A stretch of 64,000 nt of DNA, taken from NCBI GenBank assembly GCA_973895155.1, contig OZ316897.1:23411455-23475454 (forward strand), given 5' to 3'. Under the pieces are notes generated by a model that ran no database searches, was not told where the DNA came from, and saw only the letters and a program-made list of their open reading frames with translations. Below, piece by piece: positions 1 to 44,345 of the stretch. Made by a program: the position numbers and the translations under genes. Each line of letters begins with the position of its first letter. The stretch's first letter is position 1. The DNA comes from Marsupella aquatica (lineage: Eukaryota; Plantae; Marchantiophyta).

Positions 1-2128
1 CAGGAAAACCTTCATGAGATGTAGAGAGGTGGGTCTCAAGTTACACCCAGATAAATGTTTTTTTGCAGTAACCGAGGGGGTGCTACTAGGTCACAAGGTA
101 TCAAGGAAGGGCATTGAGATTGACAAAGGTAAGCTAGCAGTATGGCTAGATATCATGCAACCTAAGAACATAAAGGATGTAAGATCCTTCTTGGGATGCA
201 TTGGTTACTATCGCCGGTTCATCAAGGATTTTGCCAAGCTGGCTTTACCATTAACCAATATGCTCAAGGCAGGAGCAGACTTCGAACCCACACCCGAACG
301 AGTCACAGCGGTGGTAGAATTGAAGCAGATGTTAGTAGAGGCCCCAGTCATGATAGCACCGGACTGGAACAAAGATTTTCATGTTTTTGTAGATGTCTCG
401 GGCTTCTGTATTGGCTCAGTACTAAGTCAGTTGGATGAGAAAGGAAGGGACCATCCCATATACTTCGCAAGCCGTCAGCTTGCCGATGCCGAACGGAACT
501 ACTCTACCATGGAAAGAGAAGCATTAGGAGTCATTTATTCTTGTAAAAAGTTTAGGCATTATTTACTAGGGTACAAGGTAATCTTTCATACTGATCATGA
601 AAGTTTGAAGTACCTAGTCAATAAGCCGGACCTTACAGGCAGAGTAGCAAGATGGATTTTGCTATTACAGGAGTTTGACTATGAGCTGAGGATCAAGCCG
701 GGAAAGTTACATGCCAATGCCGACTTCTTTTCAAGGATCACAGGTAAACCTGCCACGGATTGCATCGATGATCGATTCCCCGACGAGGAGATATTCGTTG
801 TGGAAATAGCTGGTACATGGTACCCTGAGATTTTACAATTTCTCAGCACTTCCAGATTACAGCCAGGATTAAGCCGAGAGCAAGCCGCAGTCTTTGTGCG
901 GAAGGTCAGACAGTATCAGTGCATTAAAGGCATACTGCACAAGCATGGAATCAACGGCACGATTCAAAGATGTTTGGAAAAGAGAGAGGTAAAACGAGTC
1001 CTACGGGCCATGCATGGAGAGGAGGCTGGAGGACATTTTGCCCCAGTAACCACGTCTAAGAAGATATTAAATGCCGGTTACTGGTGGCCCACCTTGCACA
1101 AAGATGTCTATCAGTTTATCAAACAATGCGATCCTTGTCAACGAGCGGGAGGACCAAGGGCGTCCACCAGGCATCCACTGCACCCTATTCTACCTCTGGC
1201 ACCATTCGAGAAGTGGGGTATTGATTACATTGGACCTCTGAAACCACTGACCCACCCTCGACGGAACAAGTACATAATCCTGGCTACGGATTATGCAACT
1301 AAATGGGTAGAGGCCAGACCAACAACGAAGGATGATGCAATTACTACGGCTAGATTCATGTATGAGCAGATCTTCACCAGGTATGGAGCACCCCTAGAAT
1401 TAGTTAGTGATAGAGGAACCCATTTTTTGAATGATATAATTAGTCGTTTAAATGAGCAGTATTTAGTTAAACATAGGCCTACTACTCCCTACCATCCAAA
1501 GGCAAACGGGTTGACAGAACGAGCAAACGGAATCATAGGAAAGATATTGAACAAGACAGTAGCTCAGAACAAACTCGATTGGGATGATAAATTGTTTGCT
1601 GCTGTTTTTGCTTAAAATCTTGCCTATAAATCCACTACCGGTCATACACCCTTCTTCTTAACCTTTGGACAAGAAGCCCTGGTACCCATGCAACTTGAGA
1701 TACCGACATTTCAAGTTACAATTGAGGAAAGAGCCTCAGCAGAGGAGAGCCTAAAGGAGCGAGAATATAGGTTAGAAGCTTTAGAGGAAGTGAGAATGAT
1801 TTCAGCCGAGAGAGTAGAATATAGACAGAATATCATGAAGCAGCAGTATGATAAAAGGTTAAAAGTAGTTAGTATTCATACCGGTGATCTTGTGCTACTT
1901 TATGACAATAGGTATAGTAGGTTTCCAGGAAAGCTTTACACTCGCTGGTTAGGACCCTTTAGAGTAACCATGATGTTCCCCAATGGCTCCGTACAATTGG
2001 CCAACATTACGGGAGAGGTATATCCAGTTCGCATCCATTATGACCGCCTCAAGAAATACTATATGGACGAAGATGAAGTTGTTCGCGAGGACGCTTCACA
2101 ATTAAGTGGGGAGCTATGTGATGCCTAG
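1..2128 (+). pseudogene. pol: pol (RT C-term, RNase H, integrase) of A1 with one premature stop
   Basis: Motifs FVDVSG, YFASRQL, HTDH, WGIDYIGP, SDRGTHF, WLGPF. TAA at 1613-1615 is TAC in A2/A3. The stop codon lies inside the LTR. Confidence 0.9.
2100..2116 (+). other. polypurine tract of A1
   Basis: AATTAAGTGGGGAGCTA immediately before the LTR TG. Confidence 0.75.
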
Positions 2129-5100
2129 ACAGGAATCACTCGGCCGGTTAAGTGGGTAAAGCAGGAAGGCACCCTAGGAACACCTTAGTATAGGGACAAA
2201 ACAAGGAAAATATAAACAATTAGGGGCAACCATGGAACCCGGCCAGAGGCCGGAGGTAAGGCTGAGGGTGAAAACCCGATTAGGGTTAGGGCGCGTTAAG
2301 CGTCGGCGGCTAGGAAGGATCAACGGGAAGAAGGACCGGCAGAGGAGAGGGGTAAGGAGCGCTTGCAGGAGATGGTGGCTCATTTGCGAGCACGAACTAG
2401 GCAGACGACTATGGGAGGCCAACTACTGTCAGCTGCTTAGGCAAGCACTCGGGGAGAGAATAGATACCGACGATCGACCTAAGGAGGGTATGAGCAACGT
2501 CAATCAAGCGGCACATTTCTGGGGATGCCTGTTCGAACGGGCAACTGAGTACATCAAGACTTACGAGGACGAGGAGTCAGAAAGGGCAGCTCGAGAACGG
2601 CAGGAGCTCGCTCGATTGTGGGAGCTGCAGAAGACGGCTTTCTTAGGAGGCGAACTCATCAAGGACGAGTTCCTGTGGACGCCTACTTCCAATCAACTCG
2701 ACGATCTTTTGTTTTGCAAAGACAGCGTCGTCGGCATCCGAGAGGCCATCAAGAACTGCAATGACATACACTGGGAATTAAAGGGTAGCACGGAAAGGTG
2801 GACCCAGGCAACGGTGCTAGGAGAAACCTCCACGGCAGCAGAGATGAAGAGGAAGGGGGCCGTCAACGATGAAGCCACCCCGGCAAAAAGAACGAGGTCG
2901 GCGGCACCAAAGAGGCCAGCCGAGCAGCAGAGCAGGAGGCAGGGAGAAGCCGAAGAGGAGGAGGTCGATCCCATCAAGGCCATTCCAACCAGGGATGACA
3001 CCTGGAAGGGCTGGGCGGCAACCCTACCGGTGGAGGTGCAACTACATTTTGCACGGGAGGAGGATGCATGCTTTACGGCCATGCAGACCAAGAAGTACCA
3101 AGGCTTCATGGCCGGATCCGGCTTGGAGGCCTTTGTAAGATTACCATGGCTGAAGCCGGAGGTACCGGAGTCAGACCTATTAGAATTCATGGGGTCATGG
3201 GAACCCGAGACCAATTGCACGAGGATATATGGGAAGGATTTCTATCTTACTCCCAAGGTAATTGCCGAAGTGTTTGGCTTGCCGATAGGCAATAAGACCA
3301 AAGTTGATACCAGGAAGACCTTGCCTGACAAGGAGTTCCGGTCGTTCCCCGGGCCATCAACGAAGAATGGCTTCTTCCGGAACACTTGCACCAACCCGCA
3401 CATAGGAGAGATGATCGACTTCTTGCGGGTGACCATGCATTGTAACTTGCCGAGGGCAGAGATCGGCAAGGCACAGGTCTATCTGGCAGAAAGGCCAGAC
3501 CCAAGCCGGGACTACAACGGGTACCTCCTCAACCAATTGAAGAAGATCTTAAAGGAGGAGCAGCAGGTAATCGGCATGGGGAGCGTGTCGCGGCTTGGCT
3601 ATCACATGCCGCTGTTGTGCCGGTATGCCAGAGGTCAGACTTTTGCCCCGGTACTTCCCCTGCAGGTAAGGGCACCCGAGGAAGCTCCAACGCCGAGGCC
3701 GTTGGCTGAGAAGCCTCAACCACCTGTTAGTCCTACGATCGAGCAGGTGTTTAGGCCCAGGAAGGAAGACTTGCCGATGCAGCAACCAGGCATGCAGAGT
3801 CTGCTGAAACTACTGGAGAAAGAAAAGAAATCGGCATCGGCAACAACAACGGCAACGGCAACAATGCAGGACACTACTACAGAGGTAGGCCTACACCGGC
3901 TCACAAGAGAAAACCCCTTTGCTGGAGACAAGGAGAGAATCAGGCCGGAATCCAAGCCAGGTGTTCGAATGTACGTGGGAACCTCAAGCTCCAAATCTGA
4001 GGCAGAATTGCCTGAAGCTCCTACCGACGAAGAGGAGAGGGAGAAGCCGGACGTCCAAGAGGTAGAGGAGGCAGTGGAGGACTGCAGCCATGATAATTCC
4101 GGCTATGGGTCGGACCATCACGTTCCAGGAGTAAGGACCTGTGGCCGGTTTGTCCCCACACTTCCAAGGGTAGTGCGAGGGGACCCCAACCAGCAGAGTA
4201 GCCCTGAGTCTCCCCCACCAGATGTTGCTCCCCCGAGCTTCGACGGCATAAAACAGACGGTGCAGGAATTTCAGGAGCGAATCAAGCAGGAGGAGGAGGC
4301 CGCCCTGGCTAAGGAAAAGGATTTACCAGGAGGAGATTGGCCGGAGGACATCAGGCGGCTAGCCGAAAAAGGAAGCAAACCTCTAGCCACGATTGAAGAG
4401 ATCCGCAGGACGGCTTGGGAGCAGAGGCCACGATGGGCGATGCCGATCACTTCTACTTACTCCACCTACGCTAAGAATAGAGCCATGGAGTATGGTGAGA
4501 TGTGTGGGGAACTTGCGCTCGGCATCTTTGGAGAGGAGTTGGAGGTAGGACCCTTTTTCCATAGGGAGCAGTTGGAGAAGCACCAATTAGAAGAAGCGGT
4601 GGCTTTAGAGAGAAGCAAGAAGGACGAGGTCATTCGGCGGCTTAGGAGGATGGAAGCCGAGATTGAAGATCTAAGGGCGGCCAAGAAAGCCCAAGATGAA
4701 CTGCGGATTAAACGACATGAGCTGAACATCATGCAGGGGCAGTTGGACACCGCGCAGGCTGATAATCAGAATATCAAGGATAAACTGACTCAGACGCAGG
4801 AAGAGTTGGCCGACACGATCAAAGAGAGGGAGAAGTGGAAGCAAGAGCTGAAGAATACAGAGGAGGCCCACATAACAGCCAACAGCCGGGCCATGGCGGA
4901 GACCCAAAGAAAGGAATGGGCGTTGAAAGGGGAGCTCGAGAAAATCCGCGGAGCCCTTGAGCAGAAGGAGGTCGAGTTAGGGAAATCCTATCAAGGGATT
5001 ATGGCGCTGCAGCAGGAGCTTGCGTCCCTGACGGCCAGCTTCAAGGCCGACCTAAGGGAGAAGGACGAGATGCTCGAACAGACTTACGCCAAGATGAACC

Positions 5101-6752
5101 AGATGGAGTCTGTCATCATTGCAGAGCTCGACAAGGAGCTAAGAGCAACCCAGGAGGAGAGGGCTACCTTGAAGAAGGAATTGGAGGAAGCCCACAGGGA
5201 GCAGGAGGAGGCCAAAAACGAGCTGGAGGGGGCACGTAAGGACCTGGATGAAACCCAAGAGGAGTTGGAGGAAATCACGAGGAAGATGGAGAACCTACAG
5301 CGGCGGGCCGACAACCAAACAGAGCGGCTGAAGAAACAAGCCGCAGTATTTAAATGCTTAGCTGCAGCAGGTCCATCTCCCGTTGGGACAAACCAGTTAC
5401 CAGGGGTGGTAATTGCCGAAGGACAAGCCGCGCCACCTGCACCAGTGCCGGAAGTAAGTGGGAAGGGGAAGGGACCAGCTGCCGAGCCACCAACGAAGAA
5501 GAAGCGGAAACCTTCAGGGTCAAGGAGTAATACGACTTCACAGGCCGTGGTGATCAAGGAGCTAGACCCAGCACCGACCCCAGACAGGGTCACGGCTAGG
5601 GATCCAACTACCCTAGGGGAAGGGGAGGCCGAAGCCGAGGGAGTGGCTGAGGCCGAAGCCGTGGGTATTGCCGAGGCCGGTGTCGAGGCTGAAGCCGAAG
5701 GTGGACCCAGTCAGGCCGATGGAGAGTTGACTCAGTCAAGGGCAGGTAATCTGTCAGAGAATGAACCTACGGCAGTGGCTGAGGAGGAAGCATTGGGGGC
5801 ATCCATTAAGGATCCACCACCGGTGTCGTGACGGTGCAAGGGCGCCGTTCCTTTTAGGGAGGGCGGACGTGGAGGGAGGAGGCGTGAGTGGGCAGGGCGG
5901 GCGCGGATCTCCACGTTTAGGATTAGGATCAGAACCAGGAGCGGCCCTGACACTTAGCTTAGTGGGATTGCGGTCCCACTGGTAGGAGCAACACTTGTGC
6001 TCCTGCCTTGCTGTACATAGGTAGATTCGGGCAAGTAGATTACTGTTAAGTAGATTAGGCTTACGATGCAAAGAATGGCGGATCCACTACCAGGATAAGT
6101 ACCTGGGCAGCGGGGAGCTCAGGGCCTCTTCTTTAGCAAGTTTTTAGTTTGCACCAGCCGGGCTGGGATCAAGTAGTACGAGAAGCTCTCGGTTAGTCAT
6201 ACAGTGACCCTTGTGTATATTCATGTTTCCTCATGCCTAAGAGCTGAATAGAGTTGGCCTCACGGCTTAGTTCACAGAACTTGTGTATGAGATGTACTGT
6301 TTGTATGGCAAGTGCATGGTATGACTCAGTCAGAATGAGTCATTTTGCTATTTGTGTGTCACATTAACTTGTGTGAAGAGTGCCCACATCAACAGAAGGA
6401 AGGAAAGTAAGCAGGGGAGTGAGAGTTGGATGTGTCGAGCTGAGAGAGGTCTTAGCGGCTTAACCAAGCCTATTGGGGATCATTCCGGCGGCGGAATCCA
6501 AACATACCTAACAAGACGGAGGGGAAGACAGGGGAAGACAGGGGAAGGCCTATATTAGGCCGGCTACGTATCTCATGACCCGATGAAGGATCTGTCCAGT
6601 ATATGTGTGTAAAATGTTAATAGTAGTAGTAGAAGGTTAGCAGCGTCCCATGCCGCTAAGCCGCGGAAACGGCCTCGCCAAGCACGAAACCTGCGGGAAT
6701 CGGCTTGAGCTGGGGGGTTTCTTGGGTTTAGGGAGCCATGGGACGCACCACA
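2117..6752 (+). repeat. 3' LTR of A1 (4636 bp, TG...CA), contains a long ORF
   Basis: Homologous end to end with 7594-12338 and 54880-59599. Termini are fixed by the CTGTC TSD of A3. Confidence 0.85.
2232..5831 (+). CDS. Intact LTR-embedded protein (1199 aa; likelier start ATG 2490, 1113 aa): transposon accessory-type N-terminal domain, low-complexity linker, long coiled coil, acidic tail
   Basis: Uninterrupted ORF conserved in three copies. Motif GLEAFVRLPW..EF..LTPKVIAEVFGLP..NGF..C is shared with the B and D extra ORFs. E/K/L/Q-rich heptad region. TATAAA at 2211. Confidence 0.85.
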   Translation: MEPGQRPEVRLRVKTRLGLGRVKRRRLGRINGKKDRQRRGVRSACRRWWLICEHELGRRLWEANYCQLLRQALGERIDTDDRPKEGMSNVNQAAHFWGCLFERATEYIKTYEDEESERAARERQELARLWELQKTAFLGGELIKDEFLWTPTSNQLDDLLFCKDSVVGIREAIKNCNDIHWELKGSTERWTQATVLGETSTAAEMKRKGAVNDEATPAKRTRSAAPKRPAEQQSRRQGEAEEEEVDPIKAIPTRDDTWKGWAATLPVEVQLHFAREEDACFTAMQTKKYQGFMAGSGLEAFVRLPWLKPEVPESDLLEFMGSWEPETNCTRIYGKDFYLTPKVIAEVFGLPIGNKTKVDTRKTLPDKEFRSFPGPSTKNGFFRNTCTNPHIGEMIDFLRVTMHCNLPRAEIGKAQVYLAERPDPSRDYNGYLLNQLKKILKEEQQVIGMGSVSRLGYHMPLLCRYARGQTFAPVLPLQVRAPEEAPTPRPLAEKPQPPVSPTIEQVFRPRKEDLPMQQPGMQSLLKLLEKEKKSASATTTATATMQDTTTEVGLHRLTRENPFAGDKERIRPESKPGVRMYVGTSSSKSEAELPEAPTDEEEREKPDVQEVEEAVEDCSHDNSGYGSDHHVPGVRTCGRFVPTLPRVVRGDPNQQSSPESPPPDVAPPSFDGIKQTVQEFQERIKQEEEAALAKEKDLPGGDWPEDIRRLAEKGSKPLATIEEIRRTAWEQRPRWAMPITSTYSTYAKNRAMEYGEMCGELALGIFGEELEVGPFFHREQLEKHQLEEAVALERSKKDEVIRRLRRMEAEIEDLRAAKKAQDELRIKRHELNIMQGQLDTAQADNQNIKDKLTQTQEELADTIKEREKWKQELKNTEEAHITANSRAMAETQRKEWALKGELEKIRGALEQKEVELGKSYQGIMALQQELASLTASFKADLREKDEMLEQTYAKMNQMESVIIAELDKELRATQEERATLKKELEEAHREQEEAKNELEGARKDLDETQEELEEITRKMENLQRRADNQTERLKKQAAVFKCLAAAGPSPVGTNQLPGVVIAEGQAAPPAPVPEVSGKGKGPAAEPPTKKKRKPSGSRSNTTSQAVVIKELDPAPTPDRVTARDPTTLGEGEAEAEGVAEAEAVGIAEAGVEAEAEGGPSQADGELTQSRAGNLSENEPTAVAEEEALGASIKDPPPVS

Positions 6753-7593: not shown

Positions 7594-10500
7594 TATGGTG
7601 CGTCCCATAGCTCCCCAAACCCAAGAAACCCCCCCGCACAAGCCGATTCCCGCAGGTTTCGTGCTCGGCGAGGCCGTTTCCGCGGCTTAGCGGCATGGGA
7701 CGCTGCTAACTTCCTTCTACTACTACTATTAACATTTTACACACATATACTGGACAGATCCTTCATCGGGTCATGAGATACGCAGTCGGCCTAATCTAGG
7801 CCTTCTCTTGTCTTTCCCTCCTGTTGGTTAGGTATATTTGGATTCCGCCGCGGGAATGATCCCCAATTGGTTTGGTTAAGCCGCTAAGACCTCTCTCAGC
7901 TCGACACATCCAACTCTCACTCCCTTGCTTACTTCCCTTCTACTTGTTGATGTGGGCACTCTTCACACAAGTTAATGCGACACACAAATAGCAAAATGAC
8001 TCCTTCTGACTGAGTTATACCATGCACTTGCAATACAAACAGTACATCTCATACACAAGCTCTGCGAACTAAGCCGCGAGGCCAACTCTATTCAGTTCTT
8101 AGGTATGAGGAAACATGAATATACACAAGGGTCACTGTATAACTAACCGAGAGCTTCTCTTACTACTTGATCCCAGCCCTGCTGGTGCAACTAAAAACTT
8201 GCTAAAGAAGAGGCCCTGAACTCCCCGCAGCCCAGGTACTTATCCTGGTTGTGGATCAGCCTGATTCCTTGTAGCGTAAGCCTAATCTACCTACTGTAAT
8301 CTACCTAACTATCTACCTATGTACAACAAGGCAGGAGCACAAGTGTTGTCCTCACCCGTGGATCCGAAATCCCACTAATCTAAGTGTCAGGGCCATCTCC
8401 TGGTCCTGATCCTAAGTCTAAACTTGGAGATCAGCGCCCGCCCTGCCCACTCATGCCTCCTACCTCCACGTCCGCCCTCCCTAAAAGGGACGGCGCCCTT
8501 GCACCGTCACGACACTGGTGGCTGGTCCTCAATGGACGCCCCCAATGCTTCCTCCGCAACCACTGCCGTTGGTCCGTCTTCTGACAAATTACCTGCCCCT
8601 GACCGAGTCAACTCTTCATCGGCCTGACTGGGTCCACCCTTGGCTTCGGCCTCAGCATCGGTCACGGCCTCCGCTACGGCTACGGCCTCTGATACGGCTA
8701 CGGCCTCCCCGGCATGTTCTAGTGGAGGATCCGGTACCTCGGCAACATTACTGGTTCTCCCGGCCTCGGCCTTGCCATCTCCTCTTCCTAGGACTGGTGG
8801 ATCCACCGCCGTGCTGATGCCGGAGGTTGGTGCCGGGTTTATCTTCTCGGTCACAACAGCTTGAGAAGCCGTATAACTCCCAGACCTAGAAGGTTTCCGC
8901 TTCTTCTTCTTCCCTATTTTGATAGTCGGTTCCTTCCCCTTGCCACTTACCTCCGGCACCGGGGTGAGTGTTTCGGCTTGTCCTTCAGCCAATACTACCC
9001 CTGGTAACTGGGTTCCCCCAATTGGAGTTGGACCTGATGAAGCCAAGCATTTTAATACTGCGGCTTGTGTCTTCAGCCGCTCTGTTTGGTTGTCGGCCCG
9101 CCGTTGTAGGTTCTCCATCTTCCTCGTGATTTCCTCCAACTCCTCTTGGGTCTCGTCCAGGTCCTTGCGCGCCTCCTCCAGCTCCTTATTGGCTTCCTCC
9201 AATTCTTTCTTTAAGGTAGCCCTCTCCTCCTGGGTTGCTCTTAGCTCCTTGTCGAGCTCTGTTACGACCACAGACTCCATCTTATTCATCTTGGCATAAG
9301 TCTGGTCGAGCTGGTCGTCCTTTTCACGCAGGTCGGCCTTGAAGCTGGCCGTTAGGGACGCAAGCTCCTGCTGCAGCGCAATAATTCCTTGATAGGATTT
9401 CCCTAACTCTGCTTCCTTCTACTCAAGGGCTCCACGGATATCTTTGAGCTCTCCTTTCAAAACCCTCTCCCTTCTTTGGTTCTCCACCATGGCCCGATTG
9501 TTGGTTGCTAAGTGAGCCTCCTCTGCATCCCTTAGCTCTCGCTTCCATTTCTCTCTTTCCTTGACTACGTCGGCCAACTCTCCTTGGGTCCGAGTCAGTT
9601 TATCTTTGATAATCTGATTGTCAGACTAAGCGGTATCCAACTGCCCCTGCATGATGTTTAGCTCATGCCGCTTAATTCGCAGCTCATCTTGGACTTTCTT
9701 GGCCACCTGCAGGACTTCCACCTTGGCTTCCTTCTCCCTAAGCCGTCGGATGACCTCGTCCTTCTTGCTTCTCTCCAAAGCCACTGCTTCTTCTAATCGG
9801 TGCTTTTCCGACATCTCCCTCTGGAAAAAGGGTCCCTGTTCCAACTCCTCCCCAAAGATGTTGAGCGCCAAGTCCCCACACATCTCCCCGTACTCCATGG
9901 CTCTATCCTTAGCATAGGTGGAGTAACTAGAAGTCATCGGCATCAACCACCGCGGCCTCTGCTCCCAAGCCGCCTTGCGGATTTCTTCTACGATGGCAAG
10001 AGGGTTGCTTCTTTTTTTGGCAAGCCGCCTGATGTCCTTCGGCCAATCTCCTCCTGGTAAATCCTTCTCCCTAGCCAGGGCTGCTTTCTCTTCCTCCCTA
10101 AGTCGCTCCTGAAATTCTTGTGCCGTCTGCTTTATGTCGTCAAAGCTCGGGGGAGCAACCTCTGGTGGGGAGACTTGGGGCTACTCTGCTGGGTGGGGTC
10201 CCCTCGAACTACTCTTGGAAGCGTGGGGATAAATTGGCCACAGGTCCTTACTCTTGGAACATGATGATCCGACCCATAGCCGGAGTTATCATTGTTGGAG
10301 TCCTCCACCGCCTCCTCCACTACTTGGACTCCCGACTTCTCCCTTTGTTCCCCTGGTCCAGTCGTGAAAATGGCCTTACGGATCACGGGCTCTGGTTCCT
10401 CTGGTTTCCAGGCTGTCGTCTCCCTCTGCTCTCCGCGGGAAGGAGTCTTAGGCTGCTCTGCCTCTGATTCGGGGCTTGAGGCTCCCACATACATTCGCAC

Positions 10501-12338
10501 TCCCAGCTTGTGTTCTGGCCTCCTTCTCTCCTTGGCTCCGGTAAAGGGGTCTTCCCTTCTGAGTCGGCTTAGGCCGACCTCTGGGGCAACGTCTTGTATC
10601 GTTGCCGTTGCCGGAACCGGAACCGTTTCCTTCTCCAGCAATTTCAGCAGATTTTGCATGCCTGGTTGCTGCATCGGCAAGTCTTCTTTCCTTGTCCGAA
10701 ACACCTGCTCGATCATTGGACTGTCGGGCTGGTTGGGCTTCTCTGGTGCTGGCCCCTGCTCTGGAACCTCCTCCGGTGCCCTTGCCAATAGGGGAAGTAC
10801 TGGGGCAAAGATTTGACTTCTGGCATACCGGCACAACAGCGGCATGTGATAGCCAAGCCGGGACACGCTTCCCATGCCGATCACCTGCTGTTCCTCCTTC
10901 AAGATCTTCTTCAGTTGGTTGAGGAGGTACCTGTTGTAATCCCGGCTTGGGTCTGGCCTTTCTGCCAGGTAGACCTGAGCCTTGCCGATCTCTGCCCTCA
11001 GCAAGTTACAATGCATGGTCACCCGCAAGAAATCGATCATCTCTTCGATGTGTGGGTTGGTGCAGGTGTTCCGGAAGAAGCCATTCTTCGTTGATGGTCC
11101 TGGGAACGACCGGAACTCCTTGTCAGGTAAGGTCTTCCTGGTATCAACCTTGGTCTTATTACCCATCGGCAAGCCAAACACCTCAGCAATCACTCGGGGA
11201 GTGAGATAGAAATCCTTCCCATACACCCTCGTGGAATTGGTCTCGGGTTCCCATGATCCCACGAATTCTAATAAGTTTGAGTTCGGCACCTCCGGCTTCG
11301 GCCATGGTAATCTTACGAAGGCTTCCAAGCCGGATCCGGCCATGAAGCCTTGGTACTTCTTGGTCTGCATGGCCGTAAAGCATGCATCCTCCTCCCGTGC
11401 AAAGTGTAATTGCACTTCCTCCGGTAGGGTCGCCGCCCAGCCTTTCCGGGTGTCATTGTTTGTTGGAATGGCATTGATGGGATCGACCTCTTCCTCTTCG
11501 GCTTCTCCCCTTGTCCTGCTCTGCTGCTCTGCTGGCTTCCTAGGTGCCGCTGACCTGGTCCTTTTTGCCGGGGTGGCCTCTTCGTTGTTGTTTCCTTTCC
11601 TCTTCATCTCGGCTGCCATGGATGTTTCTCCTAGCAAGGTTGCCTTCGTCCACCCCTTCGTGTTACCCTTCAACTCCCAGTGTAGGTCGTTGCAGCGATT
11701 GATGGCTTCCCGGATGCCGACGATTCTGTTTTTGCAAAACAGAAGGTCGTCGAGCTGATTGGCAGTAGGAGTCCACAAGAACTCGGCCTTGATAAGTTCT
11801 CCTCCTAAGAAAGCCGTCTTCTGCAGTTCCCAGAGCCGAGCGAGCTCCTGCCGTTCTTGAGCTGCTCTCTCCAATTCTTCATCCTCGTAAGTCCTGACGT
11901 ACTCACCTGCCCGTTCGAACAAGCATCCCCAAAAATGTGCCGCTTGATTGACGTTGCTCATACCCTCCTTGAGTCGATCGTTGGTATCTGTTCCCACCCC
12001 GAGTGCTTGCCTAAGCAGCTGACAGCATTTGGCCTCCCGTAGTTGTCTGCCCAGTTTGTTCTTGCAAATGAGCCACTATTCCTCGCGAGCGGTCCTTACC
12101 CCTCTCCTCCTCTGGTCTTCCCTCCCGTTGGTCACCCCTAGCCGCCGACGCTTAGCGCGCCCTAACCCTAATCGTGTTCTCTCCCCCGGCATCCTTACTT
12201 CCAGCCTCGGCCCGGGTTCCATAGTCACCCTTAATTGTTTATATTTTCCTTGTTTTTGTTCCTATACTAAGGTGTTTCCAGGGTACACTCTTGCTTTACC
12301 ATGTAAACCGGGATAGTGATTCCTGGCTAGGCATCAAC
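7594..12338 (-). repeat. 3' LTR of A2 (~4.75 kb, mutated termini)
   Basis: Reverse complement of the A1 LTR, with the PPT adjacent at 12339-12355. Confidence 0.85.
8507..12222 (-). pseudogene. Disrupted LTR-embedded coiled-coil protein gene of A2
   Basis: ORF pieces 10132-11997, 9626-9946 and 8507-9289 are homologous to the 1199-aa ORF. Confidence 0.85.
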
Positions 12339-19747: not shown

Positions 19748-20106
19748 TGTGACGCCGCCGGTACGGCGGTTAAATGAGTGATTCAGTCTAACTGCGCTCG
19801 GCACGCGCGTTAGGTGGGTCTTAGGCCGCTATTATTAGCATAACGACAGTATTTAGGTAATCATTAGGGGTAGGACATCATTAGGCAATAAGGGGGACTT
19901 TAGGTTCGGGCTGGCGGCGGGTCGCTATTCGCACACCCGGGTTATGAGCATGGAGGGGCCCCTCCCTCGGGTCCGTATAACGAACTTAAGGAAGCGGCCA
20001 CTGACGCACGCTGACTCAGACCGGCGGAGTGGCCGGTACACCACAAGCGTGAGCGGTTCAACCTATGGGCGTCGAGGAGACGTCGGGGATCGACAAGCCC
20101 TCAAAG

Positions 20107-20113
20107 TATAAAA
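20107..20113 (+). promoter_or_regulatory. Candidate TATA box in the B LTR (copy at 30167-30173)
   Basis: TATAAAA about 100 bp upstream of the LTR ORF ATG, followed by a CT-rich leader. Confidence 0.5.
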
Positions 20114-20214
20114 GGGGAGCCAACCCTTTGTAGTGCACCAGTCCATCAGTCCGCGCGCCAGCTTCGACCCCAGCTCTCTCGTTCTCTCTAGGTCGCCACT
20201 ACTATCTCCTCTGA

Positions 20215-22845
20215 ATGTCGCACACGATCCTCTCCAGCTCGGCCATTCGATTCTGGACGTAGTTCCTATCTACTGGAAGGCACTTGGCCGATTCATTGAA
20301 ACACGCCAACCCACGCCGATACGAGATCGAACGTGAATACGAGAGAGCCATCCGCCTAGCAGGACGACACCACTACGTCCTTAACTTTGACTACCCGTCT
20401 CAGAGCGAGCTTTACCGACCAGCTGAGGTATCTGGGTACTTCTTTGACGGAGACAAATATATCGGGTTCTGGGAAGCATTGCTTCGGCTTCCGGACGAGG
20501 TCTTCAATATCCCGGGTACAATCGACCTGCAGCGACATCACTTCGACCACATCCCTGCCCAGGTTCGGGCAGTCATTAACGGCGAGTCCAGTACCAACCG
20601 TTCGACAAGGGCGTCCGCACTCGCTTCGGAGAACTTCTACCAGCACCTACAGAGCTTCATGGGAACTCGGCCATCAACCAACATGACCAACTCAGCCGTA
20701 CCCGTACCCGTGCCCATGCAACCGCAGCTTCAGCTTCAGCCTCAGCCACAGCCTAGCCAAACCCCACCACCTATCACCTAGCCAGCACAGGTACGCTCCG
20801 TCATCAACGCTGTGGATCTTAGCGATGACGACGAGGCTACCCCACCCTTGACCAGGCGGCCCAGAGGAACAAGCGCTCGGGGGGCCGACACTATATCGTC
20901 CCCACCCCCTGCTCTGACCCCAGGAGCGGCCCCAGCAGACAACATGGTGACCGTGGCCGCCCCGGGCCCGTTACCAACCGCAGTGGCACTCCCCAGGCCC
21001 GATCGGGAGGATGGGGAAGTATCACCTTCCCCGAGTCAGTCACGGGGAAAGAAGAGGAAGGAATCCGCCAGTGCATTCGGGTTACCGTTGGCCACGGTAG
21101 CCGTAGCCAAGGTAACGATGCATCGCATGGGGGAAAACGTTCACAGCAACATCCTCCATCCCAAGCATGTGGTGTACCTGAAGACTCAGGGATTTGAGCA
21201 CCTCGCCTCTCTCCCCTGGAACACTTGCAGGTACTACGGGGAGGACATGACAGAATTCGTCAAGAATTATGACGACGTACGTCAACAGACTCGGCTGCGG
21301 GGAAGGAATATGTCCCTCACAGAAGAACGGCTCAAGATGATCTTCGGGTTACCCGAAGGTGACCATCGAGTCGAATCACGGGCTCCCGGGGGCAAGGGGG
21401 CCAAGTACCAATCTTCAAGTTTTCCCTCAGAGGGATCAGTAGACAACGGGTTCGTGATGAGGACCTGCCTCATGCCCGAGATAGCTGAGCGGTTGGAGTT
21501 CCAGAGGTACGCTCTCCACATGATGGAACCCCGGGGGGAGATCTCCGCCGCCCAGGTCATCCAGGTCGAGAACTATCGACCTAGGAAGTGGGCGTCGTAC
21601 TTCGCTAAGAAATTCCATGAAGAGATGGAGCGGCGAAGGAAGACGCTGTACATTGGCGGGAAGGCGTATTTCGCTAGCCACATCGAAATCATTCTTGAGT
21701 GGTACGCCCGGTTTGATCGACGAACCCTTCCCCGCATCAACGTTACAAAGCTGGTCCCAGCTAGGTGGGTTTTTCCGGCATTGGAGAGACGGCCCCAACC
21801 CGAGGCCCGAAGTCCACTGGACACGCCAGCTTCACCCACTCCACCTCCACAAATAGCTGTAATCATAACCGAGGAGGCGCCGGAGGGGTCGGTCGTCGCA
21901 ACCGTTGATGCGACCCAACTAGCCGGGCTAAGTACAGAAGTTGGTACGGCAGAGGTCTTACCCGAACCTGGGTCTCCCAAGGACCCGCCGGTGGCAATTC
22001 CGGAGAACCGGACATCGCTGCAGGAGGATACTCCGGCCCCTTCCAACGTTATGTCCCCAGGGCTGGACGTCACTGCCCCGGCCCCTGCGCGTGTTGATGT
22101 CTGCCCGTGCCCAAATCCGGACAGGCACAACTTGGACCACCCGGAACTCTTCGTACAGGGTACGTTTCTGAACGGGCTTCTGGGAGATTTCTCTCATCAA
22201 ATTGCCCAGGATACCGGGGAGTTCATGGCTCGGAAGGTAGCCTGTTTCTTCAATCAGGAGTTGGTTGCCGCCGTAAAGGCAGGGCGGGCCTAGTCGGAGG
22301 CCCTTCAGAGGATAGAGCGGTACCGGGTGGAGTCCGTGTACCTAAAGAACGAAGTGGCAGCTCAAGAGGCTGAACTTCTGCAACTACGACCCAAGGTTGC
22401 AGCCGCCGATGAGTTGTTAGCAAAGGCGTACGCTCTTACCGCCCTAGCCGAACAGGCCAAAGCTGGGAACGAGGCCGAGATTACACGACTCCGGAACCAG
22501 ATTGATAGTTTGAAGAAACAAGCTGTCACCTGGCAGAAAGACCTGGAGGAGGCCGAGGAGCGAGCCCAGCGAGACGCGACGGAGATAGCCACGCTGCAGG
22601 CCGAGATGGCGCGGCTCCAAACCGAGGCCGAGAAGCAGGACCAGCTGGCGAGTAAACTAGCGAGCGACGCCCAGCAGCTGGAGGAGGCATGTCAGGAGGC
22701 AGCAGAGGAGACGGACGCGGCGAGGCGAGAGAACGAATCTCTGCTGGACCAGGTCCAGCTCCTCAAAGCGGACAATGACAGGCTTCGAAGGCAGCGGGAT
22801 GGCCGTTCCCATTCGGGTGGCTCTGGCAAGCGTGCCAGGCATTAG
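20215..22845 (+). pseudogene. LTR-embedded protein of B, 5' LTR copy (876 codons, three CAG>TAG stops)
   Basis: Single frame. TAG at 20260, 20779 and 22291 are CAG in the 3' LTR copy. GFEHLASLPW..EFVKNY..IFGLPEG motif and C-terminal coiled coil. Confidence 0.85.
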
Positions 22846-23757
22846 CGGCGGAGTAGGAATAGATTAGGATTAGGATTGGCTTAGTCAGGCTCTTGGGACA
22901 GGCACCTGCCTTAGGTACGGCAGCGCTGCCCTGCTGTCCAGCCTGCGTAGATTAGGATCTTCTAATAAGACACAACCGTTTTCCGGCCTGACTGTCAGCT
23001 TAGTTAGGACCTTGGTCAGCGAATCTTCGGCGGGAGGATACCCCGTTCCTCGGCTCTTAGTATTTAGTGCACCCCTCGGTAGAGGCAGGGGGGGGTTTTT
23101 AGTTTCAGAGTCGGACATCCGCGGGACATGCGGGGAGTCCCGACCTCTGGGAATGACAAAGTACCAAGGGGAGGGGGTAGGACTAAGCTTGCCGGGCGAG
23201 TGCGGAGCCGGGCTCCGTTGTAGTGTGCACCCTTGGTCTTGAACCTGTGCATTCCAGGGCTGTCGTGTCAACTAAGTGTACGCATATGTTCCCTTTGTAG
23301 TAAAAATCCTTTCCCATCATTTTTCCTTCGTGTAAATCGAGATTGTATGCATGTGTGCGCATATGTGTGTGGGTTTCTCGTATATGGGTGGCAGCGCCGG
23401 GCCGAACGCACTACCCGAGACGTGCACAGGGTGCAGCCTGCGGGTAAGTGGTTGCGAGCACGGGTTGAGGACCTGTATCATCGAATCCGGATCGAAGGCG
23501 GACAGCACGAAGGCTTAGAAGCCCTTAAGCCGGGGTCGATCCTGCTATCGACTAGGGTACGTTCCGGCGGCGGAACACAAACCATACCTAGGAGGTGTCC
23601 GTATTTAGCAGTATGCGCACTTAGCGCTAGTTTACGAGAATAAGGTGCATTACGTGCTTCCCTTCCTGCCCGAACCCTCAGATTTACGAGGGATGTGCCC
23701 GTCTAAGCTGAAGTCTGAGTTAAGGCCGAAGCCTACGACGTGACATAGCCTTTGTTT

Positions 23758-23775
23758 TGGCGCTAGATGGAGGGG
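23758..23775 (+). other. Putative primer-binding site of B (TGGCGCTAGATGGAGGGG; primer not identified)
   Basis: TGG-initiated motif 12 nt after the 5' LTR. Confidence 0.55.
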
Positions 23776-23868
23776 GCACTCTACATATCGTAGAGGGGAG
23801 ACATGTGCGTATTCACCTAGGCAGGATACATCAGGACGTAGTACTAACCATTGCATTTATATGAGTAA

Positions 23869-25677
23869 ATGCCCGTCACTCGTTCTCAAGCAGCTTACTT
23901 GAGGAGATTGACCAGCGAACGAGAAAGTGCAACCACAACAAGCTCCGACTCGTCGGGCTCGGAGGACTCGCAATCGTCCCGACGTATGAACATACCCCCG
24001 GGATCTTCGGGGTCCGGTTCGACCGGCCCTGCTGCGGTTCCACCACCACCACCACCTATGGCAGCCGCTCCACCGGTGGCCCGCGCTGCTCAGGCGCCTC
24101 CACAAATATCGCAACGATCGCGATTTCATTATCGACCTTTCAAAGGGCGTCATGGGGATGATCCGGATGAATGGTTGGATGAGTTTGAAGCCACTGCTAA
24201 AGCTAATGGGGAAGACGCCATTAAGCTAACCGTCCTCCCGGGAGTAATGCGGGGAGAAGCTCGTCCATGGTACAACTCGTTACCACCCGGGACTACCTGG
24301 GCACAATTCCAAGCTGCATTGCTGCAGGAGTTTCGTGCCATTGGATCAGAACAACGTTCTCTATTAAAGATTGGCCAGCTTCGCATGGGAAAAAAAGAGT
24401 CCCTGCGGAAGTTCATTCAGAAGTTTCAGAAACTTGCGGCCAAGATCCGGCCCAGGCCAGGAGACGCGCTCCAGCTTACATGGTTCCTTCATGGTTTGCC
24501 CACGAATATGCAATTCTGGGTACGCCAAAATAATCCAATTTCAATGCAGGCGGCCATAGCGTGCGCCGAAACTTACCGGGAGTCCACCTATAACTCCTGG
24601 CAGAGCCAGCGAGCACGCCGCAGGAAGGGTAAGTACGAAACCTTCAGTGACAGTGACTCCGAATCGGACGACGAGAGGAAGAAGAAACGGAAGAAGAAGA
24701 AGAAACATCGTTCGACCTCGTCCAGCTCCGAGACGGAATCCAGTTCGGATTCAGCTTCAAGCATCGGATCCTCTACCTCCAGTTCATCAGGAAGTGACTT
24801 GGAGAGCGAAAGCCGGAGCAAAAAGAAGAAGAGACGAGTGAAGAAGGAGGGGAAGATTAAACCCCGGGCGCGAAGAACGATACCAGATCCAAAGGCTGCC
24901 GAAGCAGACAAGCTGAACGAAATCACGGATCGACTCAAAGCACTATCAGTACATCTTGCGGAGAAGCCGGTGGAGAAGAAGAAGCCATCTGAGATTCGAG
25001 CCCATGCGTGGTGTTCAAAGTGCTTCCAATCCGGCCATGTGGTGCAGGAATGCCCAAGGTGGAAGAACCGAGTTCACCAAGTAGAGCTGGATGATGTTGA
25101 CAACCCGGGCCCCGAATCGGAGTCCACGGAGTATTTCTTTGAGGACCCTCCTGATTCCATGTACCAGATTTCAACGGTTGGTCCGCGTAATTTAGCGGGT
25201 AGAACTGCGTACCCCTACCCAAGTAATGGCCAGAGTTTCCAGGTTATCAGTAACCCGAGCATCCCTCCTAAGCCAGGGATTTGGCGGTCCCCGGTTTGTT
25301 ACAACTGTGAAAAGCCAGGACACTTTGCGAGGGAATGCACCGAACCAAGACGTCAGGGAGATGGCCGAGGCACCCCACTATGTCAAGTTTGCAAAACGGA
25401 GGCTCATTCCACGGCCAACTGTCCGTTGGTAATCGCTACTCGAACGAGTGCGGCTAGACCGGCCCAGGCTGGACCAGTCACGAGCGATGCAGTCGTCCAA
25501 ATGATTGCTGTAGAATGGCAAGATGACAACACCGAGTGGGTGAATCTGGTGGACGTGGCGGAACACCCTAATCCATTGGATGAGGCCGAGTGCTACCGAG
25601 TGTCGACAAGGGCCGAACGGAAGGAAGAAAAGACGGAGGAGAAACGGAGGAAAAAGCAAGATACTACTCCGGTGTAG
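23869..25677 (+). CDS. gag: gag of B (retrotransposon gag domain, Ser/Lys-rich tract, three CCHC knuckles)
   Basis: DPDEWLDEFE..ARPWY..TW..F motif; CSKCFQSGHVVQEC, CYNCEKPGHFAREC, CQVCKTEAHSTANC. Confidence 0.9.
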   Translation: MPVTRSQAAYLRRLTSERESATTTSSDSSGSEDSQSSRRMNIPPGSSGSGSTGPAAVPPPPPPMAAAPPVARAAQAPPQISQRSRFHYRPFKGRHGDDPDEWLDEFEATAKANGEDAIKLTVLPGVMRGEARPWYNSLPPGTTWAQFQAALLQEFRAIGSEQRSLLKIGQLRMGKKESLRKFIQKFQKLAAKIRPRPGDALQLTWFLHGLPTNMQFWVRQNNPISMQAAIACAETYRESTYNSWQSQRARRRKGKYETFSDSDSESDDERKKKRKKKKKHRSTSSSSETESSSDSASSIGSSTSSSSGSDLESESRSKKKKRRVKKEGKIKPRARRTIPDPKAAEADKLNEITDRLKALSVHLAEKPVEKKKPSEIRAHAWCSKCFQSGHVVQECPRWKNRVHQVELDDVDNPGPESESTEYFFEDPPDSMYQISTVGPRNLAGRTAYPYPSNGQSFQVISNPSIPPKPGIWRSPVCYNCEKPGHFARECTEPRRQGDGRGTPLCQVCKTEAHSTANCPLVIATRTSAARPAQAGPVTSDAVVQMIAVEWQDDNTEWVNLVDVAEHPNPLDEAECYRVSTRAERKEEKTEEKRRKKQDTTPV

Positions 25678-28600
25678 CCAGCGATAAATATACCCCCGGA
25701 AAAGGATGATGACTACCGACGGGACGACCCGAAGCTATTTTTCCCCCGCATCGAAGAATTGGTAAAGAAACAGCTGGAGGCTTACGAAGCTCGGGAATAC
25801 CAGAAGGCAATCGATAAGGACATCAAAGCAGCCGAGACAGCCCAGCGTCAGGAGCAAGAAAAGCAAGATAAACAAGAGGAAGCCAAGCAGCAGCCAACGA
25901 AAGAAACAAAGGAGGACTATGATATTAAGGAGGACGTGAAGAGTTGCCCGGGTACAGCAACGGTGGGGCAACTGCTGCAGAACAACCCACAGTACAGACG
26001 ACAACTGAGGGAGTTGCTCATGGGTCGCCGAAGGAGAAGACTACCCCGAGTTGGGAGTGCGGACTGCAACATGATATGCGAGGACCTTGGAGCGCCGGAC
26101 ATCTTGATCGAAATTAATAACTGTACCATCAAGATGGTCCTTGTAGACGGAGGAGCGGGAGTCAACATCATGACTGAAGAAACGTCAGTCAAGTTAGGAT
26201 ACCTCACGTATCAACCCACGGCCCGAGCTATCAGATTAGCAAACGGGGCAAGGGTCCTCCCATTAGGCACGCTCACACGAGTGCTCACTCTGGTGGGAGG
26301 GGTAGAGTTCTATCTCAACTTCTTAGTCATGAGGCCGGTTCGTCCCTCCTCTTATCCGGTTCTTCTGGGCAGGCCGTGGCTGTACGGTGGCCGTGTAGTC
26401 ACGGATTGGGGAAAGAAGGAGCTACGGTTCGGGGAACCCACCGTACGGGTATCCTGGGCAATGGACGATTATCAGGGAGAAACCCCACAAGGACCCGAGG
26501 AATATGATTCGGAGACCTCGGAGGAAGAGGAACTCAATATGATCGAACTCATCTCGTCCCTATCCGAGGAAGATGTCTTCGGAGTTGAAGCAACCCGAGA
26601 AACACATCTCCTAAATTACCCGAGGGCTGCCATTGAGTCCACCCCAAGTACATCTACTGTCGGGGATGAGGAAACGCACGAACAACTCGTCGAGACGGAG
26701 GACACGGCTCCAGCCAAGCAGGGAGCCGTGGCTACTCCTTCCATTTCAGAGCCTTGTAACTATGAACCAGCCCAACAACCGCCTGAGGCCGAAAACTCGA
26801 GACCGAGACATAAAAAGCGAGTCTCATGGGATCCGTCCATTCCGCAATTGGAGGAAGTAAACCCCATCCCGAGACCAATCCCGGTCCCACCCATGTACGG
26901 AGGGGTTCGGTTAGCTGAGCTTGACGCGAGCCTGGACCCGAGTCTGCGAAACCAGGTTGAAGTCATCAGGAAGGAGCACTACCGGAAGTACACTATTGGG
27001 ATGGACAAATCTTTTAACCTGGGCCACGCTTTGACGGGGAAGGCTGAAAAAGCCATCCAAGCTTTGCTCAAGGAATATGAAGATGTGTTTGCATGGAGTC
27101 ATCATGATTTAACAGGCGTCTCCCCCGAGTTGGGAGAACACACAATCGATCTGAACCTAGGAGCCCATGCGGTACGACAGCGACAACGTCGCATGAATCC
27201 GAGGTACTCCATCTTAGTGAAGGAGGAAATTGATCGTCTCCTCGCCGCCGATATCATTTACCCGGTAATGGCCAGCGACTGGGTCTCTCCCATTGTCATT
27301 GTACCAAAGAAGGGAGGTACGGATGGAAAACCTAAGATTCGTATCTGTCAGGACTACCGTAAGCTGAATGACGCAACCCGAAAAGACCATTACCCATTAC
27401 CATTCACGGATATGGTTCTAGATATGGTGGCCCGAAATGAAATCTATACATTTCTTGACGGGTATTCAGGTTATAACCAAATCTGGATTCGTCTCGCGGA
27501 TCAGCTCAAAACAACGTTCACTACGGAGTGGGGAACGTTCGCATTTTGGAGGATGCCTTTTGGTCTGTATAACGCCCCGGCTATGTTTCAGCGCCTTATG
27601 ATGAATATCTTCCACGATTTCCTACGGGAATTTTTGGAGATATTTATCGATGACTTTGCCATCTTCGGAACCGTTGCCATGCACCCCAAACACCTACGAC
27701 GAACGTTGCAACGATGCCGAGATGTTAACCTCAAACTACATCCCGCCAAATGCTTCTTCGGGGTAGAGGAGGGGGTGTTACTCGGGCATCGTGTGTCCAA
27801 ACGGGGCATTGAGGTGGACCAAGAGAAAGTTGCGGCCTGGATGGCGGTGGTGTTCCCCTTGGATCAAAAAGCAGTATGATCCTTCTTGGGCTGCGTAGGG
27901 TATTACCGCCGGTTCATTAAAGACTTTGCTAAAATTGCGTTGCCCTTAACTGAGATGATGAAGAAGGACGCAACGGTCGAGGAAACACCCCGGAGACGGA
28001 TTGCTTTTGAGGAACTCCGTAAACGACTCACCACCGCGCCTATCATGGTCACCCCAGACTGGAATAAGGAGTTCCACGTGTATGTCGATGTGTCAGGGTT
28101 CTGTATCGGATCCGTACTTAGTCAGCTAGATAAGGATGGACGTGATCACCCCATCTATTTCGCTAGCCGTCAACTATTTGCAGCCGAAAAGAATTATTCC
28201 CCCACTGATCGAGAAGCTTTGGGAATAATCTACTCGTGTAAAAAGTTCCGACACTATCTGCTAGGCTACAAGGTCATTTTCCACACGGATCATGATAGCC
28301 TGAAGTACATGGTCAACAAAGCGGATGTGACAGGACGGATAGCCCGGTGGGTGCTACTTCTCCAGGAATTTAATTACGAAGTTCGGGTTCGGCCAGGAAG
28401 GGTTTCTTTTCACGACTGGACGGCGTACCAGTCGATCAGCCAATTGATGATATTTTTCCGGATGAGGAGTTGTTCCACGTAGGGGAAGGGACACCAACGT
28501 GGTACGGCTCAATAATCACCTTCCTTTTAACGGGCCGCATCCCTGACGGCATCAATCAGGAGGCCGCCGCTGTGTTTTTACGGAAAGCCGGGCCTTACGT

Positions 28601-29837
28601 CATGATACAGGGTCACCTACATAAGGAAGGTATTAACGGAAAGTTACGACGCTGCTTAGAGTATAAGGAGACACTTATCGTGATACGGGCCCTGCATGAA
28701 GAAGAAGCTGGAGGCCATTTTGCGGCAGTTACGACAGCCCGAAAGATTCTGGACTCGGGGTATTGGTGGCCTACATTGCATCGGGATGTACAGCGCTTCA
28801 TTAAGGGCTGTGACTTATGTCAGCGAGCGGGGGCCCCGAGGCGGGCTCATCATCACCCGCTCACATCTGTGCTTCCATTGGCACCATTCGAAAAATGGGG
28901 AATTGATTATATCGGACCGTTCACTCCCGTTACCCGAAGGCGAAGGTGCAGGTACATCCTATTAGCTATTGATTACTCCACCAAATGGGTCGAAGCGCGG
29001 GCTACGGTAAAGGACGATGCCGCAACCAGTGCCAGATTCTTATACGAACAGATTTTCACCCGATTCGGACCGCCCTTAGAATTGGTAAGCGACCGTGGAA
29101 CCCACTTCCTCAATGACACCGTAGCCCAGCTTACGGAGCGTTACCTAGTCAAGCACCGCAAGACTACCCCATATCATCCTAAAGCCAACGGGATGGCGGA
29201 GAGAGCAAATGGTATCATTGGGAAGATCCTCAACAAAACTGTAGCTGCGCACAAAACGGATTGGGATGATAAGTTGTACGCGGCGGTGTACTCGTATAAT
29301 CTAGCTTACAAAACTACTACGAGTCATAGCCCGTACTTTCTGGTGTTCGGCCAACATTCGTTGGTGCCCGTCGAATTTGAAGTGCACACTCCACGGGTCA
29401 GCATTCGGGATCGCTTACCTGAATCTGAAAGTCTGTCAGACCGAGCTTATCAGATTGAAGCCTTGGAAGAAGCACGGCTACTGGCAGCTCGACACACCGT
29501 GAAGAAACAGGCAACTTTGAAGAAGCAGCACGACAAAGGACTACGGAGGGTCGACGTCGTGGCAGGCGATCTAGTCCTTCTGTACGATAGTAGGTACATG
29601 CAGTTTCCAGGGAAGCTGCATACCCGGTGGTTGGGGCCCTTCCTTGTCAATCAGATCTACCGAAACGGATCTTTGGAGCTTGCGACGTATGCCGGCGATT
29701 TACTCCCCACGCGAATCAGCTACGATCGTGTAAAAAAGTACCACCATCAAGATGACGACGCCAATAGCGATGTTCGCGAGGACGCTTCACAATTAAGCAG
29801 GGAGCTATGTGACGCCGCCGGTACGGCGGTTAAATGA
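25678..29837 (+). pseudogene. pol: pol of B (PR-RT-RH-INT), in frame with gag; TGA at 27877 and frameshifting deletion near 28400
   Basis: LVDGGAG protease, FIDD RT, YVDVSG RH, WGIDYIGP/SDRGTHF INT. The frame runs into the 3' LTR. Confidence 0.92.
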
Positions 29838-35372: not shown

Positions 35373-35378
35373 TCTTTT

Positions 35379-35396
35379 TGGCGCCGCTGCCGGGGA
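35379..35396 (+). other. PBS of D1, tRNA-Asp type
   Basis: TGGCGCCGCTGCCGGGGA, one mismatch to the Athila-type TGGCGCCGTTGCCGGGGA. Confidence 0.85.
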
Positions 35397-38547: not shown

Positions 38548-38694
38548 TGTTATGAATACACAAGATGATAGTAGTCAATAATCCCCACTCACTTCCATTA
38601 TGCCAAGGACTTATATAGTCCAGAAGGGTTAACATGGTTGGGTTAATGTTAACCTATCCTATACTAGGGTTAAGTCATATTATGGGTTATAACA
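38548..38694 (-). repeat. 3' LTR of Copia E
   Basis: Identical by eye to 44194-44340. Confidence 0.95.
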
Positions 38695-39032
38695 CTTCCC
38701 CTTGGTTACTTGGACGGGTGTCAAGGAACCACACATTTAACCCTAGTTTAAAAGTGGGAGTCACTTATGATGTAGCCTCATCAAACCTTGCTGCTTTCCT
38801 CTCAAGGAAGAGTACTACCATCATTACAATTTGTGGTCCCTAATTCAGAAAGTCTCTAATGTGTATGCTCTAAGTCTAAAAGTAGCCTATTACTGTCTAA
38901 GCCAGTGGGCTAATAGTAAGTAAGCGTTTATTTGTTACTCTAGTCGGGGTAGTATTGTATTCATGATGGGGGAACATGTGTCTCTCTGTAAACTGTTCGT
39001 TAGATACTACGATTTAGTAGTTTGTCGAGGTT

Positions 39033-44193: not shown

Positions 44194-44340
44194 TGTTATG
44201 AATACACAAGATGATAGTAGTCAATAATCCCCACTCACTTCCATTATGCCAAGGACTTATATAGTCCAGAAGGGTTAACATGGTTGGGTTAATGTTAACC
44301 TATCCTATACTAGGGTTAAGTCATATTATGGGTTATAACA
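44194..44340 (-). repeat. 5' LTR of Copia E
   Basis: TG...CA, with PBS adjacent. Confidence 0.95.
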
Positions 44341-44345
44341 AGATT

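Follow-up and report, generated by a model that had tools for sequence, protein, structure and literature searches.

OTA elements commonly carry extra open reading frames (ORFs) that encode PMD, Transposase_28 or Athila ORF-1 domains (PMC6317226), and Transposase_32 has been described as related to Athila ORF1 (PMC11728184). In the accessible parts of the literature, to which all citations given here refer, the extra ORFs of plant gypsy elements are placed in the internal region (PMC7264820; PMC6317226) and their function is described as unknown (PMC7264820; PMC11728184); long LTRs (long terminal repeats) and a separate ORF0 have been described as well (PMC3485330). Here we analyze a stretch of 64,000 nucleotides from the liverwort Marsupella aquatica (contig OZ316897.1, positions 23,411,455 to 23,475,454 of the forward strand), called the window from here on, in which a Ty3/gypsy family that we name A and its sister family B carry an extra gene inside the LTR itself.

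A second described system is that of the VANC proteins. VANC21 binds a 9-bp motif, repeated in the non-coding parts of the transposon that encodes it, and removes methylation (PMC5735166). DUF1985 is the VANC domain and resembles PMD-C, and VANC and MAIN/PMD have the same fold (PMC13547354; bioRxiv 2024.09.27.615353); our literature search found no paper on the VANC21 structure itself. The ancestry of the gypsy PMD domains with respect to the host PMD genes has been called fully open (PMC5418596). In what follows, we present the evidence that the LTR gene of family A is under selection and that its core domain very probably adopts the fold of these proteins, and we weigh what its product might do for the element.

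A selected gene inside the long terminal repeat

The segment 2117..6752 (+) is the 3' LTR of a Ty3/gypsy element, A1, the only plus-strand copy among the three copies of family A in the window (A2 and A3 lie on the minus strand). This LTR is 4,636 bp long, runs from TG to CA with a terminal inverted repeat of 7/8, and begins right after the polypurine tract (PPT) at the end of pol (2100..2116, +), which is the same in A2 and A3 and has 2 mismatches to that of B and 3 to both PPTs of a more distant family, D. These limits, already proposed in the original prediction, are borne out by independent copies. The ~49 nt with which A3 begins are those of the LTR start behind the PPT, and the 5-bp target-site duplication (TSD) GACAG flanks this copy on both sides. 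Sequence words of the window occur in 13 of the 15 public sequencing runs listed, half of the words or more in 6 of them; the matching runs come under several organisms, and none of those listed is of RNA. In run X6, the match of contig 25 begins exactly at 2117 and covers 270 nt, the remaining 106 nt of this contig being unrelated to the window, and contig 31 continues beyond 6752 into the same primer-binding site (PBS) that stands behind the B 5' LTR. The summed contig depth drops sharply at 6752 in 4/4 runs. This depth is also lower over pol than over LTR and ORF in X1 and X2, a difference which is no measure of copy number and was given no weight.

The extra ORF (2490..5831, +) encodes 1,113 aa, is intact in A1 within a stop-free frame spanning 2178-5831, and takes up 72% of the LTR as a 3.3-kb gene. 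It is a gene under selection, as had been suggested from the sequence, and the selection is purifying. Counted from ATG 2490, the ratio of non-synonymous to synonymous substitution rates (dN/dS) of the whole ORF is 0.27 (confidence interval 0.22-0.33) against A2 and 0.23 (0.18-0.27) against A3, and falls to 0.12 and 0.10 in the core domain; the corresponding values are 0.06-0.10 for pol and 0.96-1.59 for the two other frames. Constraint is weak or absent in the C-terminal tail (0.51 and 1.03). The upstream ATG at 2232 was ruled out as the start, and the protein is taken to begin at ATG 2490, because 2232-2489 gives ratios of 1.55 and 1.03. Pairwise indels keep the frame (multiples of 3) in 7/9 cases within the ORF versus 4/15 in the 3' non-coding LTR, which agrees with the frame-preserving indels noticed earlier, both pairs including A1 so that the counts are not independent. 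Of the intact protein of 1.1-1.2 thousand residues that had been announced for the family, what stands is the uninterrupted ORF of A1, whereas the ORFs of A2 and A3 are each broken by a 1-bp frameshift and by stops, of which A2 has 2 and A3, in aligned codons, 6.

The location within the LTR is seen at both ends of the element in family B, a full-length sister of A (19748..33810, +; TSD CTCCA; PBS after the 5' LTR). Its two 4.0-kb LTRs, with a Kimura two-parameter divergence of 0.0098, each carry a homologous ORF (ATG 20215 and 30275). These ORFs have 3 and 1 internal stops, which lie at different codons and thus arose after insertion. In both families the integrase frame runs through the PPT into the LTR (A 2070-2128, B 29760-29837) with the common ending VREDASQLS.EL.DA, the LTRs being otherwise unalike.

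Relatives and predicted fold of the core domain

The most constrained part of the protein is a core domain at 3057..3653 (+; aa 190-388). It is homologous between A and B (28% over 185 aa, E about 1e-16, 0/500 shuffles) and, more weakly, between A and D (E 1e-2 to 1e-5, again 0/500 shuffles). A profile built from five window sequences retrieved 103 relatives at E up to 0.001 from 1.84 billion proteins and, among 20 of them that were looked up, 5 belong to Calypogeia fissa and 1 to Selaginella moellendorffii. In a tree of the core (88 of 106 sequences, 174 columns, midpoint root), A and B group with Calypogeia proteins and D falls into a separate clade. One word-indexed protein search gave 4 matches, 1 of them new; other such searches with the extra protein, two metagenome scans and a search of PDB sequences (at E <0.25) gave none. 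The earlier description of the gene as old and lineage-wide therefore fits the protein family, the position in the LTR having been seen only in A and B.

At the sequence level, the core is distant from Transposase_32 (PF20167): this family is matched by 6/66 aligned members, with a best E of 1.6e-7, and not by A1, and the best of 48 scanned relatives reaches 34 bits versus a curated cut-off of 45. For DUF1985 (PF09331) and PMD (PF10536), neither the A1 protein nor the 66 aligned members gave a hidden Markov model (HMM) match. Leads toward these two domains came from the ESM Atlas, with 0.89 to a cluster in which 82% is DUF1985 and 0.88 to one with 14% PMD, the top three matches being unnamed. 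The test for the VANC fold was set down before the core model was obtained. The AlphaFold2 model from 66 sequences has a predicted local distance difference test score (pLDDT) of 91.8 and a predicted template-modeling score (pTM) of 0.88. When compared with 48,161 chains by VIA-align, the DNA-bound VANC21 (9lnk) comes first, with Z 7.6 and a root-mean-square deviation of 4.2 over 189/199 residues; 8 chains have a Z of 2 or more, and the second has 2.6. Foldseek, over 350,542 chains, also ranks VANC21 (9lnj) first of 99, with a template-modeling score (TM) of 0.48 versus at most 0.19 for the other rows listed. On the strength of these models, the core very probably has the VANC/DUF1985/PMD fold. 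In a library of viral structures, the 805-aa protein A0A890CAY5 matches the core model as well (E 0.017, prob 0.92).

Regions outside the core

Ahead of the core, the protein has an N-terminal helical domain of about 100 aa with an FW motif (2490..2819, +), which also occurs in B and in relatives. The MS..FW match by which A and B had been linked is not significant in a pairwise comparison (61/500 shuffles as good); the homology of this region emerges with a profile that excludes all A sequences, being made from B and three relatives, and that gives A1 20.5 bits versus a best of 5.5 among 1,000 shuffles. Thus, the kinship of the two proteins stands for core and N-terminus, the latter by profile. 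A ferritin-like fold was considered for this domain and rejected, since the model (pLDDT 76) finds only generic helical bundles, with a best Z of 6.3 and the next rows following without a gap.

Behind the core lies a proline-free segment rich in E, K, R and Q (4635..5324, +; aa 716-945) with a hydrophobic period of 3.55, which is likely to form the coiled coil named in the original prediction. It failed a strict test for a period of 3.5 (862/1,000 shuffles), and a test for periods of 3.4-3.7 is not specific for coiled coils, since it is also passed by a linker control. The cluster KKKRK (5496..5510, +) resembles a nuclear localization signal (NLS) and may function as one; a second basic cluster, KRTR, is found at aa 133. 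The linkers are acidic and of low complexity. The top 19-residue Kyte-Doolittle mean in the A1 protein is only 0.82, so the protein has no transmembrane segment.

Non-coding signals and candidate target sites

The only TATA[A/T]A box of the A LTR (2211..2218, +) lies upstream of the ORF and is likely its promoter; in B the only such box, at 20107, is likewise upstream of the ORF. Among the non-coding parts of the LTR, conservation is highest at the end (6117..6752, +; 92-97% among A copies), which includes a TGTA cluster at 6214-6305. Such clusters stand 370-500 nt after the stop in both A and B, and we take them to be poly(A)-signal-like. The LTR DNA of A and B, earlier considered unalike, is indeed mostly so, except for one 29-nt motif (6483-6510 and 23562-23590, E 8e-4), which is the only clear similarity between them. 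It has a palindromic core, lies 150-240 nt before the LTR end, and is possibly a conserved RNA hairpin or a protein site. Short palindromes are enriched in the A and B LTRs but, being enriched in the unrelated element E too, are not specific. An Rfam scan of 1900-7600 gave no match.

Family D (full length, 33983..53328, +; LTR 1.39 kb) has a palindromic word, GACGCT-N6-AGCGTC, which occurs 25 times in the window with at most 1 mismatch per half, 24 of them in D non-coding DNA. These sites are found in the LTRs, the 5' leader and the spacer upstream of the extra ORF (34152-34417, 36173-36272, 48547-48720, 52108-52373, 60699-61024 and 62780-62879), and the half-site count is above that of 200/200 shuffles. 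The array is a candidate set of binding sites for D's own VANC-fold protein.

A proposed route of the gene into the LTR

In D, the extra ORF (frame 48727-51372) belongs to the internal region, wholly outside the LTR, and is flanked by two identical 15-nt PPTs, one just after pol (48439) and one before the LTR (51922). The second of these is missing from A and B, whose LTR starts at their one PPT, located where pol ends. Two PPTs are also present in Athila. This arrangement suggests a switch of PPT: in an ancestor, a PPT would have stood on either side of the gene, which is the arrangement of D, and plus-strand priming would have shifted to the one that follows pol, making the extra-ORF region part of the LTR. 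With priming at this first PPT, reverse transcription would copy the gene into both LTRs.

Probable anti-silencing and its alternatives

Because of the predicted VANC21-like DNA-binding fold of its core, the extra protein is likely to bind the non-coding DNA of its own element and to counter host silencing, and this is the view toward which we lean. The protein would act in the nucleus as an oligomer that binds DNA and maintains the activity of its family, the predicted coiled coil serving oligomerization. Each LTR, solo LTRs included, would represent a self-contained cassette with a TATA box, the ORF and a TGTA-rich 3' end, and the protein made from these cassettes would act in trans on the members of the family. 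Among the functions that had been proposed for the gene, anti-silencing is the one that gains structural support, and it ranks as the most likely, ahead of transcriptional activation, insertion targeting and a function in the particle, in that order.

Several observations weigh against this interpretation. A fold held in common does not by itself establish a function, and the PMD proteins of hosts oppose Polycomb or take part in silencing. The structural match has its own limits, since the Z of 7.6 falls below the caution level of 8 of VIA-align, the top Foldseek match is not significant alone (E 1.4, prob 0.33), identity between the core and VANC21 is 7-13%, and no Pfam family matches either the A1 core or the whole A1 protein. 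No 6- or 7-mer is enriched in the non-coding LTR DNA of A and B, the internal 5' leader of A lying outside the window, and the top 6-mer count is reached by 140/200 and 153/200 shuffles, respectively; with no target word in A or B, the array that is the hallmark of VANC exists only in D, whose core belongs to a separate clade. The window holds no full-length A element with its 5' LTR, so the ORF in that LTR is deduced from the verified LTR ends and from the fact that reverse transcription copies LTR sequence to both ends. The PPT switch could also have run in reverse, from LTR gene to internal gene, which is possible as the core tree gives no root.

The strongest alternative, though an unlikely one, is a plain activator of the LTR promoter, which would bind one or two dyad sites and recruit the polymerase, leaving silencing marks untouched. 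The fold evidence applies to it equally, the acidic, low-complexity linkers would suit it, and A and B have, in place of motif arrays, the single palindromic 29-nt element near the LTR end. However, the two characterized groups with this fold, VANC and PMD-C, both act on silencing marks, and the D arrays are spread across three non-coding regions.

Somewhat less probable still is a tether that would hold the integration complex on chromatin, or on a DNA word, and so send new insertions into centromeres or other elements. Insertions in the window are nested (B, D, A3 and D2 within E, E within A2, and A1 beside an A-type LTR piece), the integrase has no chromodomain, and Gypsy elements are enriched at the predicted centromeres of one liverwort (PMC12885004). 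Against this, the three TSDs (GACAG, CTCCA and GGTTT) have no common word and the gene is not fused to integrase. Nesting, moreover, is common in repeat-rich DNA without any targeting.

An Env-like protein or a particle or RNA chaperone, in which the coiled coil would form a structural rod, seems improbable. The sense position 3' of pol is that of the env-like ORFs of Athila (PMC7264820) and the predicted coiled coil is long, but the protein has NLS-like clusters and lacks a transmembrane segment, and the best structural match of the core is a DNA-bound nuclear protein; the particle function named in the original prediction has thus found no support. Finally, that the 4.6 kb would be LTR only in its last 0.6-0.9 kb, the ORF being internal, is very improbable: no complete A 5' LTR is present in the window and non-coding conservation peaks in the last 640 nt, but the TSD-bounded start of A3 equals the post-PPT start, no second PPT was found downstream of the A ORF, contig 25 of X6 joins an unrelated flank at 2117, and B carries the ORF in both LTRs.

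Anti-silencing, together with the PPT switch, leads to a wider proposal that we put forward tentatively, as somewhat doubtful when taken as a whole: liverwort gypsy elements would run sequence-specific anti-silencing of the VANC type, the A/B gene would have entered the LTR by the switch, solo LTRs would be autonomous cassettes, and the fold would have been borne by retrotransposons since early land plants. If so, every insertion doubles the gene, every solo LTR stays an autonomous anti-silencing cassette, and the VANC/PMD fold in retrotransposons predates the MAIN-like host genes that are thought to be the source of VANC.

Elements of the window

LTR retrotransposons of plant type are nested in one another throughout the window. 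Family A is assigned to the non-chromovirus Ty3/gypsy elements by the order of reverse transcriptase (RT), RNase H (RH) and then integrase (INT), the TG...CA LTRs, PPT, PBS and 5-bp TSD. The 3' part of the A1 pol (1..2128, +) covers the RT end, RNase H with an intact catalytic D-E-D, and integrase with one stop (1613-1615), and its frame extends across the PPT to end 12 nt inside the LTR. A Pfam scan found neither a chromodomain nor a second RNase H, with a single RH stretch and an integrase C-terminus without match. By segment, the pol proteins of A share 58-74% identity with B and 54-59% with D. On the 3' flank of A1, 6753-6874 (-) comes from a further A-type LTR that is oriented the other way, which makes it probable that A1 inserted into a member of its own family; contig joints of run X2 also pass from LTR ends into LTR sequence.

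As for the other copies, the 3' LTR of A2 with its broken ORF lies at 7594..12338 (-), and its pol runs to about 17000, where E is inserted. A3 (54880..60362, -) has a full 3' LTR (59599-54880) and a deletion that joins the first ~49 nt of its 5' LTR to integrase. The E integrase (17782-19401, -), as read from its translation, ends in a PHD-finger-like Cys/His motif where a chromodomain would be. D is very young, with 1 difference between its 1,390-bp LTRs (divergence 0.0007). It contains a copia insertion at 38548-44340 (identical 147-bp LTRs, TSD AGATT), presumably Bianca-like and, after its extra ORF, a 162-codon frame (51373-51861, +) whose protease-like segment FVIDPGSRINF makes it perhaps the remnant of a second aspartic-protease-like gene.

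Comparison with known systems

Family A resembles the Athila/OTA elements (Athila ORF-1, PF03078; Transposase_32, PF20167) in its RT-RH-INT order without chromodomain or added RNase H, its 5-bp TSD, its large LTR and its sense extra ORF after pol, and some relatives of the core match Transposase_32 weakly. Contrary to the internal ORFs of those elements, the A/B gene is part of the LTR, with which it is duplicated, an internal location being seen only in D, and the A1 protein has an additional N-terminal domain and matches no Pfam family. With PMD-A, kin of the host MAIN, MAIL1 and MAIL2, it shares the condition of a gypsy-borne accessory domain of the same predicted superfamily (0.88 in the Atlas). 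It differs in having no PF10536 HMM match; PMD-A has been described from angiosperms (PMC5418596), and a position within the LTR is absent from the accessible descriptions (PMC5418596; bioRxiv 2024.09.27.615353). More generally, no paper describing protein-coding genes within the LTRs of plant elements turned up in our search, most subscription papers being outside its reach and the supplements of PMC6317226 possibly listing LTR-borne ORFs.

Genes located in or overlapping the LTR and copied to both ends by reverse transcription are known from retroviruses, as in sag of mouse mammary tumor virus and nef of human immunodeficiency virus. The A/B gene is like them in being an LTR-located coding sequence that is duplicated in this way, whereas its protein is unrelated and far larger, and the gene is a complete 3.3-kb unit with its own TATA box. 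A coding LTR of this kind makes solo LTRs potential protein-making units, and it could be mis-annotated as a host gene.

The VANC proteins of the VANDAL Mutator-like transposons (PDB 9LNJ/9LNK) resemble the extra protein in the predicted fold of the core, in being the product of a transposon's accessory gene, in the combination of a globular domain with a coiled coil (PMC13547354) and in the motif arrays of the non-coding DNA, these last in the relative D only and not in A or B. In contrast to VANC, described as dicot-specific (PMC13547354), the gene is carried by a liverwort LTR retrotransposon and not by a Mutator-like DNA transposon, and sequence identity is low. The extra protein thus probably works like VANC, yet is no VANC: the A/B ORF belongs, among gypsy extra ORFs, to the VANC/PMD/Transposase_32 structural group and has apparently moved into the LTR. 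Through the window, an ORF of this type is linked to the solved structure of VANC21 with DNA; the window also provides an intact gene in A1, a very young relative in D with a candidate palindromic target array, and a short path by which an internal gene could become an LTR gene.

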